From IMG/VR virus record IMGVR_UViG_3300033145_002224, positions 1 through 64,000 of that record: 64,000 nucleotides of DNA, one strand, 5' to 3'. Positions 4,910 through 12,514 of the stretch are shown here, piece after piece; positions within the stretch are counted from its first letter, which is position 1, and every line of letters begins with the position of its first letter. Source of the DNA: a virus. A program made the position numbers and the translations under genes. A model generated the notes under the pieces. The model made no database searches. It was not told where the DNA came from and saw nothing but the letters and a program-made list of their open reading frames with translations.

Positions 4910-5012
4910 ATTACACCTATTTAAATTTAAAAATTATAGTTGTCCCTGCCTGGAAGATGGTGAGCCTGCCAGGGCTTCTGTCACCACCAGGCGTCCCTAT
5001 GTGGCTACATTG

Positions 5013-5086
5013 TGGAGAGAGTTGGACTTGAACCAACGACACCCAATTCTTCAAATTGGTGCTACTACCAGCTGAGCTACCTCTCC
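5013..5086 (-). tRNA. tRNA-Phe (GAA)
   Basis: Cloverleaf: acceptor GGAGAGG/TCTCTCC, anticodon arm CCAAT-TTGAAGA-ATTGG, T-arm GTTGG-TTCAAGT-CCAAC. Confidence 0.9.
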
Positions 5087-7588: not shown

Positions 7589-8215
7589 TTATACTACTAT
7601 CATATATGTTTTCAAGTCAAATATGATTTTTTCTGGTACTTTTTCTTTTTTAATCAATTTCTTAACCAAACTGCCTATAATTCCACCTATAACAGATGTA
7701 TTATAAACAATAGACCGAGCTGTGCATGGATCTCTATCAACACGATCGGGGGATGTCAGCGTTTTTCTCCACTCATCATTATTCTTACAAATATATAATT
7801 CCATTTGCTCAAGACCCATCCTGGCATCTATCACATAATCAAAACTAGAATTATTATTAGCTAAACGAATACGTTCTTTCATGCTATCTACCGCTATTAT
7901 TAAAATACTGGTAGTTGTTTTGTTAAATTGCTCATTTACATAATTTATCGTCTCACCCGTGAATTCTTTGATTGCCTTCGTGAGTGCTGTAACCTTTGCC
8001 TGGCCTGGCGAATTTTGTAAGAAGAACTGGGAAGGGAGATTGTGGGGTTCAACTCTGTCAGAGTCGTAAACGGTAAGTCGTTTAACTCCGAGCTTGGCAA
8101 GAATCGCGGCTGTCCATGAACCAATGCCTCCGGCCCCAACAATGATGATTGGTGTATTCTCTGTCTCTTCTGGCATGAGAACGTCCTCCTGCCTAATATA
8201 GTTTGTCTTGGACAT
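7589..8215 (-). CDS. ThiF/MoeB/E1-like ubiquitin-like-protein activating enzyme
   Basis: IVGAGGIGS Rossmann loop, YDSDRVEPHNLPSQ, GQAKV, AVDSMKER, IDARMG; candidate catalytic Cys in DPCTARS. Confidence 0.92.
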   Translation of the reverse strand: MSKTNYIRQEDVLMPEETENTPIIIVGAGGIGSWTAAILAKLGVKRLTVYDSDRVEPHNLPSQFFLQNSPGQAKVTALTKAIKEFTGETINYVNEQFNKTTTSILIIAVDSMKERIRLANNNSSFDYVIDARMGLEQMELYICKNNDEWRKTLTSPDRVDRDPCTARSIVYNTSVIGGIIGSLVKKLIKKEKVPEKIIFDLKTYMIVV

Positions 8216-8736
8216 AAATCTAATACTTTATTTTTTACATCTTTTTTACATTTATTAAATATATTTAAATCAAAATTTTTACCACCTTGCAAATTTCCTA
8301 TTTTTATATCTTCTGCAACGACCCTAACCGGCTTAAAAACATCAAGTCTACATAAATAATCACCTCGTTTATTAATCACTAATGAAAAACCATATCCGCC
8401 AGAAGAAAATTGTTCTATTTCATGTATATCAGTAGGTGACCAAAATACACTCATATTAGCATGGCTGTGCCACCACATACACATATCCTTTAGTCTTGGT
8501 GAATCATTCTTTATAAAATCTGTCACCTCCTCGGCGAGTGCCTCTTCTATTAATTTTGTCCTTAGAGGTGAACATATCTGATCATAAATACGAATATCAT
8601 AACAATATAAAACATTATGATTGGTTGGATGCTGTTTTAAAAATCCCATCCCAGAAATCTCATTATCCGCAAAATGGACATAATTTTTGAGCTTAAGATA
8701 TGCCTCTTTACTAAATATTATTTTCATTTTCTCCAT
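7945..8736 (-). CDS. JAB/MPN+ (JAMM) isopeptidase
   Basis: NEISGMG (Glu), WWHSHANMSVFWSPTD (HxH-x7-S-x2-D); C-terminal tail overlaps E1 by 271 nt. Confidence 0.9.
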   Translation of the reverse strand: MEKMKIIFSKEAYLKLKNYVHFADNEISGMGFLKQHPTNHNVLYCYDIRIYDQICSPLRTKLIEEALAEEVTDFIKNDSPRLKDMCMWWHSHANMSVFWSPTDIHEIEQFSSGGYGFSLVINKRGDYLCRLDVFKPVRVVAEDIKIGNLQGGKNFDLNIFNKCKKDVKNKVLDLCPRQTILGRRTFSCQKRQRIHQSSLLGPEALVHGQPRFLPSSELNDLPFTTLTELNPTISLPSSSYKIRQARQRLQHSRRQSKNSRVRR

Positions 8737-10534
8737 TTACTTGATTATGAGGTGATCGAAGGGCTACTTGTACCGCTTGTTCTGATGTGCCACTATCCGA
8801 TTGGGCTCGTGGTATATCTTGATCTACTTGTTCTCTCCGCGCTTGTTCAACAGATTCCATAAGATCACGCCTACTCCGTTCATGTATATCTGGAGCAATC
8901 GCACGTTCTTGTATTTGTGCACGAAAACTTGTCTCAGCACGAAGCGTTTCCATTACACTACCCATTAATTCTTCACCAGCCCCATTCATAAAATTATGCC
9001 AATCACTAGAATATTCATTAGTATTCTGAGGTATAGCTCCACTCCAAGGACGCCTAATACTATGACCACTACTATTAATCAATGTAACAATTACCCTCTC
9101 CACTATTTCAACAACACTATTTCCATAAGATTCAAAATTTATATCACTTATGTGACGCGGTGAATTATCACTATGTAATATTTCAGAAGAAATAGCCCTA
9201 CTAATAAATCTATCAAGTTGTTCATGTAAACATCTACCAAATAAATGCGGGTTATTTCTAAACTCTAAATTCTCTGTAAGTGCAGATATAATACTTCCCT
9301 CTACTCTACCTAAAATTCTAAAAGCTACTCCGCCTGGATAAGCAATATTATAACCAGATTGTCGTGCCCCAGGCCTGATTGAATAATCTGCTGTAAACTC
9401 AGAAGCTACAGTATTGAGCTCTTCTGCAATTCTCGTATATTCTTTCTTAAAAGAACCCAACTCTTTCTTTCGTTTTTTCTTCATAGAGGCTACTCCAACC
9501 TCATCAAAAAACTTACTACTCTCAGACACAACAATAGCAGCTAAATGATTATCATTTAATATCTTTTTAATTTTAACCCGCTTTGCCTTTTTACACCACT
9601 CTTTCCAATGACAGTATGGATTCTTAACGGCCGGACTAGTTAAGTGTATCATCACAGCGGTTATAAACATCTCTAAACTACCCTCTGTGACCGCTTTTTT
9701 AACATCTTTCTGATATTCTCCTAAACAAACATTTCCTGGTTGTATACAATAATGTTCAAGATTATTGTATCTTTTATCTAGGTTAATTATTTTAATACCC
9801 AATTTTCCATTTTCATCATACCATGAAAGCCTAATTAAAAATCTACCGAGCCGATATCTTTCTACATATAAAGTATTAGTTAAAATATAAAGACCAAACT
9901 TATCTTCTTTAATGCGTCCCACCTTATTTATATCTGGATGGTGTGAAATAAAAGAAGTTAAATCATAAAGCTCAGTACCTTTCTCTAGGGCATCACGACG
10001 CTCTTTAATATTTTTCTCACATGATTTTATTAATTTTCCAATTTTATAAAACTCTGATTTATCCATTTTCAACATTGAGTCAGCCGCCTTCATCACATCT
10101 TTTTCAGCTTTACCATCAAAGTATTTCTTGGACTTATTCTTAATTAAATCCATCACATCTTTCTTCAGCATGTAATCAACCGCCTGGGCTTTAATAGTTT
10201 TTTCGCGTACCCTTATAAAAGATTCTAGCCAATCTTTAATCCCAACTATATTACTATCTATATCATTTATGGTAATTTTTTTAAGTTTTTCCAATAATTT
10301 TCCTCCATATACTTTTGCCCTTTTTGAAAATGTAGGCTCTTTTCTTACCTCTTCACATGTCAATCTATCTGGCGCGGTAGCTCCCCTTCGTACTACATCG
10401 ACAGCATCACTCACTGTGAGGGTTGGAGTAGAACTAGCAGTTGTCGTCCACGTAGAAGTACCTGTAAAAAAATCATCATCATCCCTTATTGTATTATTCC
10501 TCGTTATGTTGTACCCAGGACTTTCTGTCATCAT
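8711..10534 (-). CDS. Large protein with a central prokaryotic E2/UBC-like domain
   Basis: LGRFLIRL...LEHYCIQPGNVCLGE...NPY resembles the E2 H-x-x-I-x-x-G-x-(I/V)-C-L signature; lies between Ubl and JAB; N-terminal coiled coil. Confidence 0.7.
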   Translation of the reverse strand: MMTESPGYNITRNNTIRDDDDFFTGTSTWTTTASSTPTLTVSDAVDVVRRGATAPDRLTCEEVRKEPTFSKRAKVYGGKLLEKLKKITINDIDSNIVGIKDWLESFIRVREKTIKAQAVDYMLKKDVMDLIKNKSKKYFDGKAEKDVMKAADSMLKMDKSEFYKIGKLIKSCEKNIKERRDALEKGTELYDLTSFISHHPDINKVGRIKEDKFGLYILTNTLYVERYRLGRFLIRLSWYDENGKLGIKIINLDKRYNNLEHYCIQPGNVCLGEYQKDVKKAVTEGSLEMFITAVMIHLTSPAVKNPYCHWKEWCKKAKRVKIKKILNDNHLAAIVVSESSKFFDEVGVASMKKKRKKELGSFKKEYTRIAEELNTVASEFTADYSIRPGARQSGYNIAYPGGVAFRILGRVEGSIISALTENLEFRNNPHLFGRCLHEQLDRFISRAISSEILHSDNSPRHISDINFESYGNSVVEIVERVIVTLINSSGHSIRRPWSGAIPQNTNEYSSDWHNFMNGAGEELMGSVMETLRAETSFRAQIQERAIAPDIHERSRRDLMESVEQARREQVDQDIPRAQSDSGTSEQAVQVALRSPHNQVNGENENNI

Positions 10535-10553
10535 GAAAAAATTAATAATAAAT

Positions 10554-10586
10554 ATGCTTGGGCAACCGTAAAGTTGCCCTATGTAT
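10554..10586 (-). terminator. Hairpin between the Ubl and E2 genes (attenuator or mRNA stabiliser)
   Basis: GGGCAAC-TTTACG-GTTGCCC stem followed by AT-rich sequence. Confidence 0.5.
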
Positions 10587-10599
10587 ACTCACTATCTTG

Positions 10600-10863
10600 T
10601 TATCGCCCGCCCTCTTTAGCACCTACAATAGCAACGGCTGCACCTCTAGAAAGCTCTGTTTTAGAGAGCTTACCTTTGTCAATTTTTGTACCGTTTACAT
10701 AAACGCTTTCATTAGGCCCTACTTCAAAGTCGTTAACATCTAACAACTTATCAACAGTGGTGCCGGGCTTGACCTTGGCTGTTTCCATACCAGAGCCCAT
10801 GCGACCAATTTGCACATTAAAGCCACCAGAACCAGTAGCTTTATTTTTTCCGATTAAAGCCAT
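10600..10863 (-). CDS. Ubiquitin-like beta-grasp protein (ThiS/MoaD/Ub fold) ending in GG-R
   Basis: 87 aa; GTTVDKLL, VYVNG, LSRGAAVAIV, C-terminus KEGGR; adjacent to E2/JAB/E1. Confidence 0.85.
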   Translation of the reverse strand: MALIGKNKATGSGGFNVQIGRMGSGMETAKVKPGTTVDKLLDVNDFEVGPNESVYVNGTKIDKGKLSKTELSRGAAVAIVGAKEGGR

Positions 10864-10874
10864 AAGATTCTAAA

Positions 10875-11174
10875 TTACTTTTTAGCACTTTTTTTCTTTT
10901 TAACCGAAGAACCATCTTCTTCCTCATCCTCTTCTTTCTTAATCTTGCGTAAGACCTCTAATAACTTCGGACGAACCGTAGTATAGAGTAACGCACTTAC
11001 AATTTCTTCACCTTCTTCGGTTAAATCTTCTAAGCAAAGACCATTTTCAAAACCAACTGAAGAATCTGGATCAACGATCCCATACTTCTCTAAAAGCTTC
11101 CGGTCTTTGTCTTTAAAAAACTTTTTGACCTTTTGCTTAATGGTTTCTTCTTTGTTTAGCACTTCATCTGCCAT
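10875..11174 (-). CDS. Hypothetical acidic/basic protein
   Basis: Operon ORF between the zinc-ribbon gene and Ubl. Confidence 0.7.
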   Translation of the reverse strand: MADEVLNKEETIKQKVKKFFKDKDRKLLEKYGIVDPDSSVGFENGLCLEDLTEEGEEIVSALLYTTVRPKLLEVLRKIKKEEDEEEDGSSVKKKKSAKK

Positions 11175-11183
11175 ATAATTTCT

Positions 11184-11468
11184 TTATATAATAATATTTG
11201 AATCACCAGGACGACTACTCCCCCGACCTTCGAGAGCGTCGACTATCTGGTTTCTTAATCTTTCGTATTTTTCTTTATGTTTGTCATCCATACCGGCGAT
11301 AGCGAAATTATTACCACACCTCTTGCATGACATTACAATCTCTGAGGGTGTAAATGGGTCACCATACTCATAAAGTGGAACAACATTAAAGTGTCCCTTC
11401 TCCTTGCACTTCTGACACTCTGTCTTTCTTGCCTCGTCCTTTGCCCAACTTATCATCCTTTTTGACAT
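11184..11468 (-). CDS. Zinc-ribbon protein (probable start ATG 11468)
   Basis: CQKC...CKRCG; overlaps the 3' end of recA. Confidence 0.65.
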   Translation of the reverse strand: MSKRMISWAKDEARKTECQKCKEKGHFNVVPLYEYGDPFTPSEIVMSCKRCGNNFAIAGMDDKHKEKYERLRNQIVDALEGRGSSRPGDSNIII

Positions 11469-12468
11469 TTTTTCTAGTTTTTTTAACTGAGCTTCCATCA
11501 AGTTTGTTATAGATGGAGGTGTAGATTTTTGGGCTGTCTTTAAGGAATTTTTTAGTTTCTTCCCTGCCGACACCGAGCTTTTCTTCTTCATAATAATATG
11601 TATTACCTTTTTTATTAATTATTTTTCTATCTATTGCTGTATCCAGGGCATCTCCAACAGTATCAACTCCCTCTCTATAAATCAACTCAATATTAGCCTC
11701 TTTAAATGGAAGTCCAACTTTATTCTTAACACCAATAATTTTCATCCAATTACCGATCACATCTTCACCCTTTTTAATTTTCAAACCACGCTTCACCTCT
11801 AACCTAACTGATGCAAAAAATTTAAGAGAACGTCCGCCTGGGGTGGTTGTCTTAGCTCCCCAGAATACCCCGATCTTGTCCCTTAGTTGGTTGATAAAAA
11901 TAACAGCAGTATTCGTCCTTGATATTTCAGCTGCAAGCACCCTCATCATCTTACTCATTAACCTAGCCTGTAAAGCTATGTTTTCCTTTTCTATTTCACC
12001 ATCGATCTCTTTCTTGGGGACTAGGGCGGCTACTGAGTCAACAACAATTATGTCGATATTCCCGGTCTTAGCCATTTCACGGACAACATCCATACCTTCT
12101 TCACCATACATCGGTTGGGAAACATAAAGATCGTCCACATTTACACCTATATTTTTAGCATAATTCTTATCAAAAGCATGTTCTGCGTCAACCCACACGG
12201 CTCTTAGGCCCTGTTTCTGTGCCTGAGCGACTATAAATAAAGACATTGTGGATTTTCCCGATGATTCCAAACCAAATATTTCAATCATCCTCCCTCTTGG
12301 AAGTCCCCCACAACCAAATATTCTATCCAAACCAAAAGAGCCCGTAGGAATAGATTCACACTGAACCCCTTCGGCCTCTTTCATTATGACGACAGTATTG
12401 TCACCATATTTCTTATTTAAACTTTTCATAGCATCATTAATAGACGCCATTTTTTCATCTTTTTTCAT
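11386..12468 (-). CDS. recA: RecA recombinase
   Basis: GLPRGRMIEIFGLESSGKST, DAEHA, VVDSVAALVP, QARLMS, FINQLR, TPGGRSLKF. Confidence 0.97.
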   Translation of the reverse strand: MKKDEKMASINDAMKSLNKKYGDNTVVIMKEAEGVQCESIPTGSFGLDRIFGCGGLPRGRMIEIFGLESSGKSTMSLFIVAQAQKQGLRAVWVDAEHAFDKNYAKNIGVNVDDLYVSQPMYGEEGMDVVREMAKTGNIDIIVVDSVAALVPKKEIDGEIEKENIALQARLMSKMMRVLAAEISRTNTAVIFINQLRDKIGVFWGAKTTTPGGRSLKFFASVRLEVKRGLKIKKGEDVIGNWMKIIGVKNKVGLPFKEANIELIYREGVDTVGDALDTAIDRKIINKKGNTYYYEEEKLGVGREETKKFLKDSPKIYTSIYNKLDGSSVKKTRKNVKKDDKLGKGRGKKDRVSEVQGEGTL

Positions 12469-12476
12469 ATATTATA

Positions 12477-12514
12477 AAGATAGCATTTTATAATCCACTT
12501 GTCAAGTGGATAAC
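12477..12514 (-). promoter_or_regulatory. Class-1 promoter upstream of recA
   Basis: GTTATCCACTTGACAAGTGGAT; here the palindrome extends to ATCCACTTG-N-CAAGTGGAT; -10 TATCTT at 17 nt spacing. Confidence 0.7.

Follow-up and report, generated by a model that had tools for sequence, protein, structure and literature searches.

A candidate ubiquitin-like conjugation cassette of four separate genes in a complete viral genome

Described conjugation systems and the viral cassette

In the prokaryotic systems characterised to date, protein conjugation by ubiquitin-like proteins (Ubl) serves the host as a weapon; this holds for the Bil systems and for CBASS priming, and probably for Bub. The subject of this report is a cassette of four genes carried by a virus, encoding a Ubl, an E2-like protein, a JAB peptidase and an E1, which is probably a self-contained, phage-owned system for protein conjugation. 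It lies at positions 7589 to 10863 of the window, that is, of the whole stretch of DNA that was analysed, which spans the first 64 kb of the IMG/VR record IMGVR_UViG_3300033145_002224 (a single contig of 101,437 bp, 100% complete according to CheckV). The identities of the domains, the fold of the E2 core, the catalytic motifs, the co-conservation of the genes and the absence of sulfur-transfer partners support this reading. A preliminary description, made from the letters of the window, had placed four contiguous, co-oriented genes here and interpreted them as a conjugation cassette; all four open reading frames are found in place on the minus strand, and the interpretation gains support from the predicted UBC fold and from the co-conservation reported below, the chemistry being a prediction. 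Full-text literature searches returned no paper describing a complete phage-encoded Ubl cassette. The features of the cassette are as follows.

7589-8215, minus strand: E1, 208 aa, a single ThiF-type adenylation domain (Pfam ThiF) with R8-Q9, G27xG29xxG32, D110 and C164 (codon 7724-7726)
7945-8736, minus strand: JAB open reading frame, 263 aa, recognised by its JAMM motif
7945-8211, minus strand: C-terminal tail of JAB over the first 89 codons of E1, in frame -1 relative to E1 (open frame, 0 stops)
8212-8736, minus strand: JAB/JAMM peptidase domain, about residues 1-175, with E26, H90, H92, S100 and D103 (motif and profile matches)
8711-10534, minus strand: E2-like protein, 607 aa (UBC-fold core model)
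8711-9499, minus strand: residues 346-607 of the E2-like protein, C-terminal extension (no significant alignment with the closest relative past residue 345)
9500-9982, minus strand: residues 185-345 of the E2-like protein, predicted UBC-fold core with H261 and C270 (codon 9725-9727), from model, structure scans and motif
9983-10297, minus strand: residues 80-184 of the E2-like protein, two long antiparallel helices before the predicted catalytic core (helices 17-61 and 65-106 of the AlphaFold2 model; family alignment A1)
10544-10596, minus strand: stable RNA hairpin between the Ubl and E2 genes (-21 kcal/mol, z -5.1)
10600-10863, minus strand: Ubl, 87 aa, ThiS-family beta-grasp protein (Pfam ThiS), a pro-form ending G85-G86-R87 (KEGGR)

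The cassette would work like Bil, Bub, PRTRC and CBASS, yet it is a member of none of them as they are defined. Bil (BilABCD) has the same four separate genes in the same order, Ubl-E2-JAB-E1, and like the window cassette it is without an E3 gene, on which account the Bil E2 is thought to choose the targets (PMC11601596). Some BilA Ubls bear short overhangs past the terminal Gly, and Bil systems tag phage tail proteins (10.1101/2023.09.04.556158). The Bil E1 has tandem adenylation domains and a Cys domain (PMC11601596), whereas the window E1 consists of one 208-aa domain; the window E2 also differs from that of Bil in its long helical N-terminal arm and in belonging to an unannotated family, and the genes are those of a phage instead of lying in a defence island of the host. 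A PADLOC scan matched no models other than generic ones for E1-E2 and JAB, and the presence of Bil models in its release was left unchecked. In Bub (formerly 6E/DUF6527) the E1 likewise has no separate Cys domain and is tied to the JAB, by fusion in BubCD and by translational abutment or overlap in the window cassette. Bub has been described as forming Ser oxyesters, as having its E2 fused to the Ubl or to the E1 and as including a DUF6527 serine protease (PMC11601596), whereas in the window the genes are separate, the Cys is invariant in the aligned E1s and present in at least 90% of the E2 rows, and DUF6527 found no match among the seven block proteins scanned.

The PRTRC set (operon type 6d of Iyer et al. 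2006) comprises a small Ubl, an E2-like protein, a JAB and a ThiF-type E1 of ~245 aa on mobile elements (PMC1779556). The window cassette shares with it the small standalone Ubl, the E2-like protein, the JAB and the ThiF-type E1, but the type 6d E2 is without the upstream His that the window E2 family has. Scores against the NCBIfam models of PRTRC fell far below the cut-offs (PRTRC_ThiF 35.2 vs 144.75; PRTRC_A 12.2 vs 101.8), and the other PRTRC proteins had no NCBIfam match. Type II CBASS (Cap2/Cap3) employs an E2-E1 fusion that acts on an adjacent CD-NTase, whereas E1 and E2 are separate in the window; the PADLOC E1-E2 (CBASS Cap2) models cover only the Rossmann part of the E1, and no member of the CD-NTase family occurs among the neighbours scanned. 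The eukaryote-like ubiquitin operon of archaea provides the best structural relative, by sequence profile, of the window JAB, the Rpn11-like JAMM enzyme 6fjv ('proteasome subunit N11-like protein'), which we take to trim pro-ubiquitin and so expose Gly-Gly, as is proposed for the JAB of the window. The E2 motif of the viral family, HPH...C, is likewise nearer to the eukaryotic and archaeal HPN...C than to the bacterial types of PMC1779556. In contrast to the archaeal operon, the window has no RING E3, its E1 is minimal and not Uba1-like, and its Ubl resembles ThiS and not ubiquitin. Finally, the 'Nidhogg' viruses of Asgard archaea encode ThiF-family E1 homologues, said to group with UBA5; only E1 homologues were reported, and a hijack of host ubiquitin systems was proposed (10.1101/2021.07.29.454249). 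The window virus also encodes an E1 whose top PDB match is UBA5, but it adds a Ubl, an E2 and a JAB. With a complete kit owned by phages, protein tagging would be at work in both camps of the conflict between phage and host, as it is with eukaryotic viruses.

The E2-like protein and its partners

No match to the 607-aa protein or to any of 22 family members was found in Pfam, NCBIfam, PADLOC or PHROGs, and as a query the window protein returned nothing in a word-indexed homologue search or when viral contigs were scanned by pattern. Searched exhaustively with phmmer, a set of 1.84 billion representatives yielded 19 homologues at E <= 1e-3 (best 2.6e-30), all of them matching about residues 80-345, and the E2-like family is large, unannotated and mostly viral. 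Residues 80-345, folded with the homologue alignment, form a pair of long antiparallel helices and, behind it, an alpha/beta core (predicted local distance difference test, pLDDT, 81), and the top Foldseek matches of this model are nearly all E2 enzymes. Because the helical arm dominated the VIA-align wide scan of this 266-residue model, the core (residues 185-345) was folded alone, using a 61-row alignment from the synteny survey, with a resulting pLDDT of 87.6 and a predicted template modelling (TM) score of 0.83. In a Foldseek comparison of the core model with the PDB, every listed match is an E2 enzyme (probability up to 1.00, TM ~0.5, best E 4.6e-3). The VIA-align wide scan of 48,161 chains, which is independent of Foldseek, is headed by UBE2J2 (Z 7.2, root-mean-square deviation 4.2, 127/147 aligned), with Pex4, Ubc13, UBE2O and UbcH10 next and almost purely E2/UEV/RWD folds in the remainder. 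A profile of the long E2 alignment gave only coiled-coil matches in the PDB. As modelled, residues 185-345 of the 607-aa protein are a UBC/E2 fold, so that the core passes what the preliminary description had named as its decisive test.

The same core carries a family motif, H-P-H-[IV]-x3-5-P-C-[LWF]-G, found in >35 relatives, of which the window version is HYCIQPGNVCLG (residues 261-272); H261 and C270 are conserved in at least 90% of the 61 alignment rows. A profile of the core aligned with UBE2L3 over 118 positions at a non-significant E of 0.08, placing 'HPhis..grpClG' on 'HPNIDeKGQVCLP', so that the His of the family meets that of HPN and its Cys meets the Cys of the signature, presumably the catalytic Cys86. 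The motif HPH...C nearly fits what we take to be the classical E2 active-site pattern (HPN-x-...-G-x-x-C), and the His...Cys active-site signature of the E2 superfamily thus appears, from the alignments, to be present in the family. That this HPH...Cys site is closer to the eukaryotic signature than are the bacterial types described in 2006 is of interest for the evolutionary past of the E2s. Alignment A1 shows the N-terminal helical arm throughout the family. The C-terminal ~260 residues found no usable structural look-alike in an Atlas search, where the model of the whole protein was poor, and neither the N-terminus nor the C-terminus of the E2 had relatives in 111 loci. Ser/Thr-rich patches recur in E2-like proteins, as TGTSTWTTTASSTPTLT in the window (10534-10298, residues 20-45) and as TTTATTMSSS and STSASPSASPS at the C-termini of relatives.

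The E1 is clearly a ThiF-type domain (Pfam ThiF, 73 bits against a cut-off of 28.1; E 2.7e-20). A profile of five members placed UBA5 first in the PDB (2e-15), followed by Uba1, MccB, TcdA, MoeB, Cap2 and BubCD, the last from Citrobacter at 6e-7. Conserved residues among 97 distinct relatives are R8-Q9 (the Arg finger), G27xG29xxG32, D51, N59, K74 and D110. The layout of canonical and Bil-type E1s, with an inactive and an active adenylation domain and a separate catalytic Cys domain, is not found; the protein has two cysteines only (143 and 164) and is without Zn-site pairs, an inserted Cys domain or a rhodanese domain. The candidate catalytic Cys that had been pointed out earlier is Cys164, which is present in 63/63 distinct relatives aligned at that column, within a P-C-[TSG]-A-[RK] motif ~10 residues before a Gly-rich helix. 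In a non-significant HMMER sub-alignment it falls on the UBA5 segment C-A-A-S-L-P-T-T-M-G, which we assume to hold the catalytic Cys250, and this correspondence of sequences is a lead towards a catalytic role for Cys164. At 208 aa, the protein is among the smallest E1s paired with a true E2 and offers a simple test case for the need of an E1 thioester. A predicted complex of E1 with the E2 core scored 0.00 and, having been run with no controls, was given no weight either way. Within E1, the codon of Met14 is preceded at a distance of 8 nt by a perfect AGGAGG (8160-8177, minus strand), either by chance or as part of a second start site whose product would be without the Arg finger; Met14 was rejected as the true start of E1, given that R8-Q9 upstream of it are conserved and that the other genes of the block are without a Shine-Dalgarno sequence.

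The Ubl exceeds the cut-off of Pfam ThiS (24.3 bits against 22.5; E 4.6e-5), in agreement with its earlier description as an 87-aa beta-grasp protein ending KEGG-R, and the GG-R end is seen. It stays below the cut-off of NCBIfam thiS (18.7 against 37.45), and its profile found no significant match in the PDB (ThiS 0.48). The five Ubl relatives aligned with it all end in GG or AG plus 1-2 residues, and across the survey loci related Ubls end in Gly-Gly or in a penultimate or terminal Gly followed by 0-6 residues (GGSR, GGR, GGVL, GGIK, GGQEC or bare GG). Given these overhangs of 0-6 residues, some Ubls of the family need no trimming, whereas others, including that of the window, do; the proposal that the JAB matures a Ubl masked by a single residue fits this pattern of C-termini.

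ThiS is the sole family match of the Ubl, the best NCBIfam matches of the E1 are ThiF/MoeB models (all far below their cut-offs), and the E1 is a minimal single domain as in ThiF and MoeB. These similarities raise the alternative of a sulfur carrier, in which the Ubl would be adenylated and thiocarboxylated and would donate sulfur, in the manner of ThiS, MoaD or Urm1, for modification of phage nucleic acids or of a cofactor, with the 607-aa protein playing a non-catalytic part. Yet none of ThiG, MoaE and rhodanese was detected in the 101-kb genome, in searches for which control genomes gave positives; for these three, the earlier statement that sulfur-transfer or cofactor genes are missing now holds for the whole genome. 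The E1 is also without a rhodanese domain and without Zn Cys pairs. Moreover, the E1 is tied across dozens of loci to a JAMM peptidase and to a UBC-fold protein, the His and Cys of which are kept in at least 90% of the alignment rows; sulfur carriers need neither protein. Given the missing partners and the superfluous E2 and peptidase, we attach very little credence to a sulfur-carrier role and continue with conjugation as the preferred reading.

The JAB was recognised by the JAMM zinc site E-x(n)-H-x-H-x7-S-x2-D, already noted as E...HSH...SPTD, all of whose residues (E26, H90-S-H92, S100, D103) are kept in all relatives that cover each position, one of these being a fragment without the N-terminus. 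Although the single sequence is sub-threshold in Pfam (13.3 vs 25 bits, E 0.077), a profile of six relatives matched the archaeal Rpn11-like 6fjv (E 5e-8) and Rpn11 (3e-4) with the motif aligned. Its frame continues across the start of E1 with 0 stops in 89 codons, and then meets 18 in the next 119. In the closest relative, locus L004 (7963-8206; E1 46% identical), the JAB frame is similarly open for 80 codons before 17 stops. The overlap has a G+C content of 0.48, compared with 0.31 for the remaining E1. The JAB stop of most other relatives comes 12-50 nt ahead of the 'RQ' codon of E1, which marks the long, putatively dual-coded tail as clade-specific; the frame runs past the RQ codon by 108 nt in L001 and by 45 nt in L002. 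The abutment of JAB and E1 in most relatives suggests plain translational coupling, judging from the gene boundaries. A fusion of JAB to E1 by a -1 frameshift is unlikely: a slip on A-AAA-AAT before the E1 start would read TAA, and a stop interrupts the E1 frame five codons ahead of the ATG.

The hairpin directly behind the Ubl gene, also noted before, is real by folding energy and by shuffling (0/200 shuffles as good). Its suggested use as a device setting the ratio of Ubl to enzymes is a conjecture, since it has no adjoining T-run, did not score as an intrinsic terminator and is not kept in L004, where only ~21 nt separate the Ubl and E2 genes.

Conservation among relatives and proposed working

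In order to examine the cassette in relatives, loci were gathered by a pattern scan with the E1 alignment (66 from viral contigs and 41 from prokaryotic assemblies), and genes were called with hidden Markov models (HMMs) built here and iterated on six-frame open reading frames, counts being made over 95 distinct loci. Many of the prokaryotic-assembly loci are short contigs of metagenome-assembled genomes (MAGs) labelled Patescibacteria, Saccharibacteria, Gammaproteobacteria or archaea. E2 core, JAB and E1 occur together in 41/95 distinct loci, 29 of which are viral contigs or the window itself, and about 20 loci have a detected Ubl; E2core-JAB-E1, in 22 loci, and Ubl-E2core-JAB-E1, in 11, are the prevailing orders. 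The co-conservation anticipated for the four genes is therefore observed as a triad with, in about 20 loci, the Ubl. A separate search with a five-sequence subset of alignment A1 located one related locus. In the closest relative, L004, five genes stand in the same order as in the window, one of them encoding a homologue of the 99-aa protein found next to the window Ubl, and the neighbours of the cassette otherwise vary between relatives. In L077-L079, MAG contigs of Solirubrobacterales (0.29, 3.3 and 1.7 Mb), Ubl-E2core-JAB-E1 is present with a short E2 of ~240 aa; since the set lies inside such large contigs, the family is not limited to free phage contigs. In L074 (2712-9427) two full E2-JAB-E1-Ubl sets stand in tandem. 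In L001 (5826-10946) Ubl-E2-JAB-E1 is followed by a second, divergent Ubl-E2-JAB; as no second E1 was detected in this 16.6-kb locus, this suggests that two Ubl/E2 pairs may share a single E1.

No pair of the survey is more widely conserved than JAB and E1, which adjoin in 71/95 loci, and this is a point in favour of an alternative in which the cassette would act in counter-defence, undoing or jamming Ubl-based immunity of the host (Bil, type II CBASS), with the JAB stripping host Ubl from phage proteins or cleaving CD-NTase conjugates and with Ubl, E1 and E2 as decoys. The tagging of phage tail proteins by Bil (10.1101/2023.09.04.556158) means that a phage deconjugase would pay. Decoys, however, need no intact E2 motif, no E1 adenylation residues and no processed Gly-Gly Ubl, all of which are conserved together, and in PADLOC and NCBIfam the generic E1 fold is all that brings the four proteins near to components of Bil, CBASS or Bub. 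Counter-defence of this kind consequently has, in our judgement, only a slim chance of being the function.

For the preferred reading, active conjugation, we infer every chemical step as well as the timing of expression. The Ubl would be made as a GG-R pro-form, from which the JAMM peptidase would cut the Arg and expose Gly-Gly. The minimal E1, probably a homodimer of ThiF/MoeB/UBA5 type, would adenylate the C-terminal Gly with ATP, and the Ubl would then pass to Cys270 of the E2 as a thioester, either via the invariant Cys164 of E1 or straight from the adenylate. As no E3 gene is evident, the E2 is proposed to select targets on its own, by means of the helical arm at its N-terminus and the fast-evolving extension at its C-terminus, and to make isopeptide bonds. 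The JAB may also undo the conjugation, and the genes of the cassette are probably expressed ahead of the virion genes. The targets might be proteins of the host or of rival phages, a guess to which we give somewhat less than an even chance, or the phage's own proteins, which is a more doubtful guess. A broader and tentative extension, which we regard as doubtful, is that many tailed-phage lineages run offensive Ubl tagging, with a compact E1 free of the Cys domain of Bil and canonical E1s, a self-targeting E2 of a virus-dominated family with a near-canonical HPH...Cys site, a tag steered by the variable E2 extensions onto host-defence or rival-phage proteins in mirror image of Bil, and a JAB:E1 ratio fixed by translational coupling and, in this clade, by the dual-coded tail. 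Because the parts are small and separate, reconstitution in E. coli should be straightforward.

Several points weigh against conjugation. The curated E2 models (Pfam UQ_con and Prok-E2_A-E) gave 0 matches at E <= 0.1 in the window protein and 22 family members, and the fold matches are moderate (Z ~7, TM ~0.5, Foldseek E >= 4.6e-3), for which reason the UBC-fold call is based on the purity of the match list and on coverage of the whole domain. The window motif departs from the family consensus, with HYC in place of HPH. The Ubl is found in only ~20 of the 41 loci with the triad, a shortfall that may reflect HMM sensitivity or short flanks. As the E1 is without the Cys domain of canonical and Bil E1s, transfer may run through Cys164 or directly; the analysis turned up no target, E3 or receptor for the cassette, and the conjugation chemistry is predicted from sequence and models.

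Genomic setting of the cassette

The cassette occurs in one copy in the genome of the window and forms part of a block of seven minus-strand genes, in the order recA, 135-aa zinc-ribbon protein, 99-aa protein, Ubl, 607-aa E2-like protein, JAB and E1. The block lies in the replication/recombination arm of the genome, with the cassette downstream of recA; the window also encodes a DnaB-like helicase and SbcC-like and helicase genes, and a match to the C-domain of the terminase large subunit is located at 80240-80710 of the genome. The remaining features of the block are as follows.

12477-12505, minus strand: promoter-like site, TTGACA-17-TATCTT with TG, just upstream of recA (consensus match only; probable start of the unit)
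11386-12468, minus strand: recA, 360 aa, first gene of the block (Pfam RecA 4.2e-101)
11184-11591, minus strand: CxxC...CxxC zinc-ribbon protein, 135 aa, a possible accessory with no clear relatives
10875-11174, minus strand: protein of 99 aa, no known family (44% identity, E 5e-17, to L004 5017-5382)
7514-7542, minus strand: promoter-like site, TTGACA-17-TATACT with TG, just past the E1 stop (probable start of the next unit)

This position among replication and recombination genes, together with the described pairing of a phage Ubl with a JAB in tail assembly (PMC1779556), brings in a further alternative, in which the Ubl would be attached, transiently or not, to the phage's own proteins as an aid to virion or replisome assembly, similar to the tail-assembly Ubl (TAPI) and JAB of lambda and T1 with E1 and E2 added. 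TAPI, however, is without E1 and E2 and is located in tail modules, whereas the window cassette lies in the early/replication arm. The differing neighbours of the cassette in relatives also speak against an assembly role, and the variable E2 extensions and the tandem cassettes of L001 and L074 look more like conflict-driven diversification. We rate an assembly aid as unlikely.

Between recA and E1 on the minus strand, the sole terminator-like site is a weak 5-bp stem within the JAB gene. With just this one weak internal site and with strong promoter-like sites on both flanks, transcription of the cassette and recA as one unit is plausible from the sequence signals. The linkage to recA is not kept in relatives, whose cassettes have no adjoining recA, and recA is regarded as context and not as part of the cassette. 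Among the 111 loci, a homologue of the 99-aa gene is found only in L004, directly upstream of the Ubl, and no relatives of the 135-aa zinc-ribbon protein were detected. An adaptor role for these two genes between recA and the Ubl is speculative. In L002 (7175-7498), a 107-aa CxxC...CxxC zinc-ribbon gene stands between E2 and JAB and matches the 135-aa protein weakly (E 0.002) with the Cys pairs aligned; possibly, then, a small metal-binding accessory recurs near the cassettes. A Shine-Dalgarno sequence precedes 0/7 genes of the block, and a blastn comparison of the block with 50,697 GenBank phage records gave no match. The phage also carries genes for tRNA-Phe(GAA) and tRNA-Trp(CCA), at 5012-5086 of the window and 89339-89410 of the genome, respectively, both on the minus strand.

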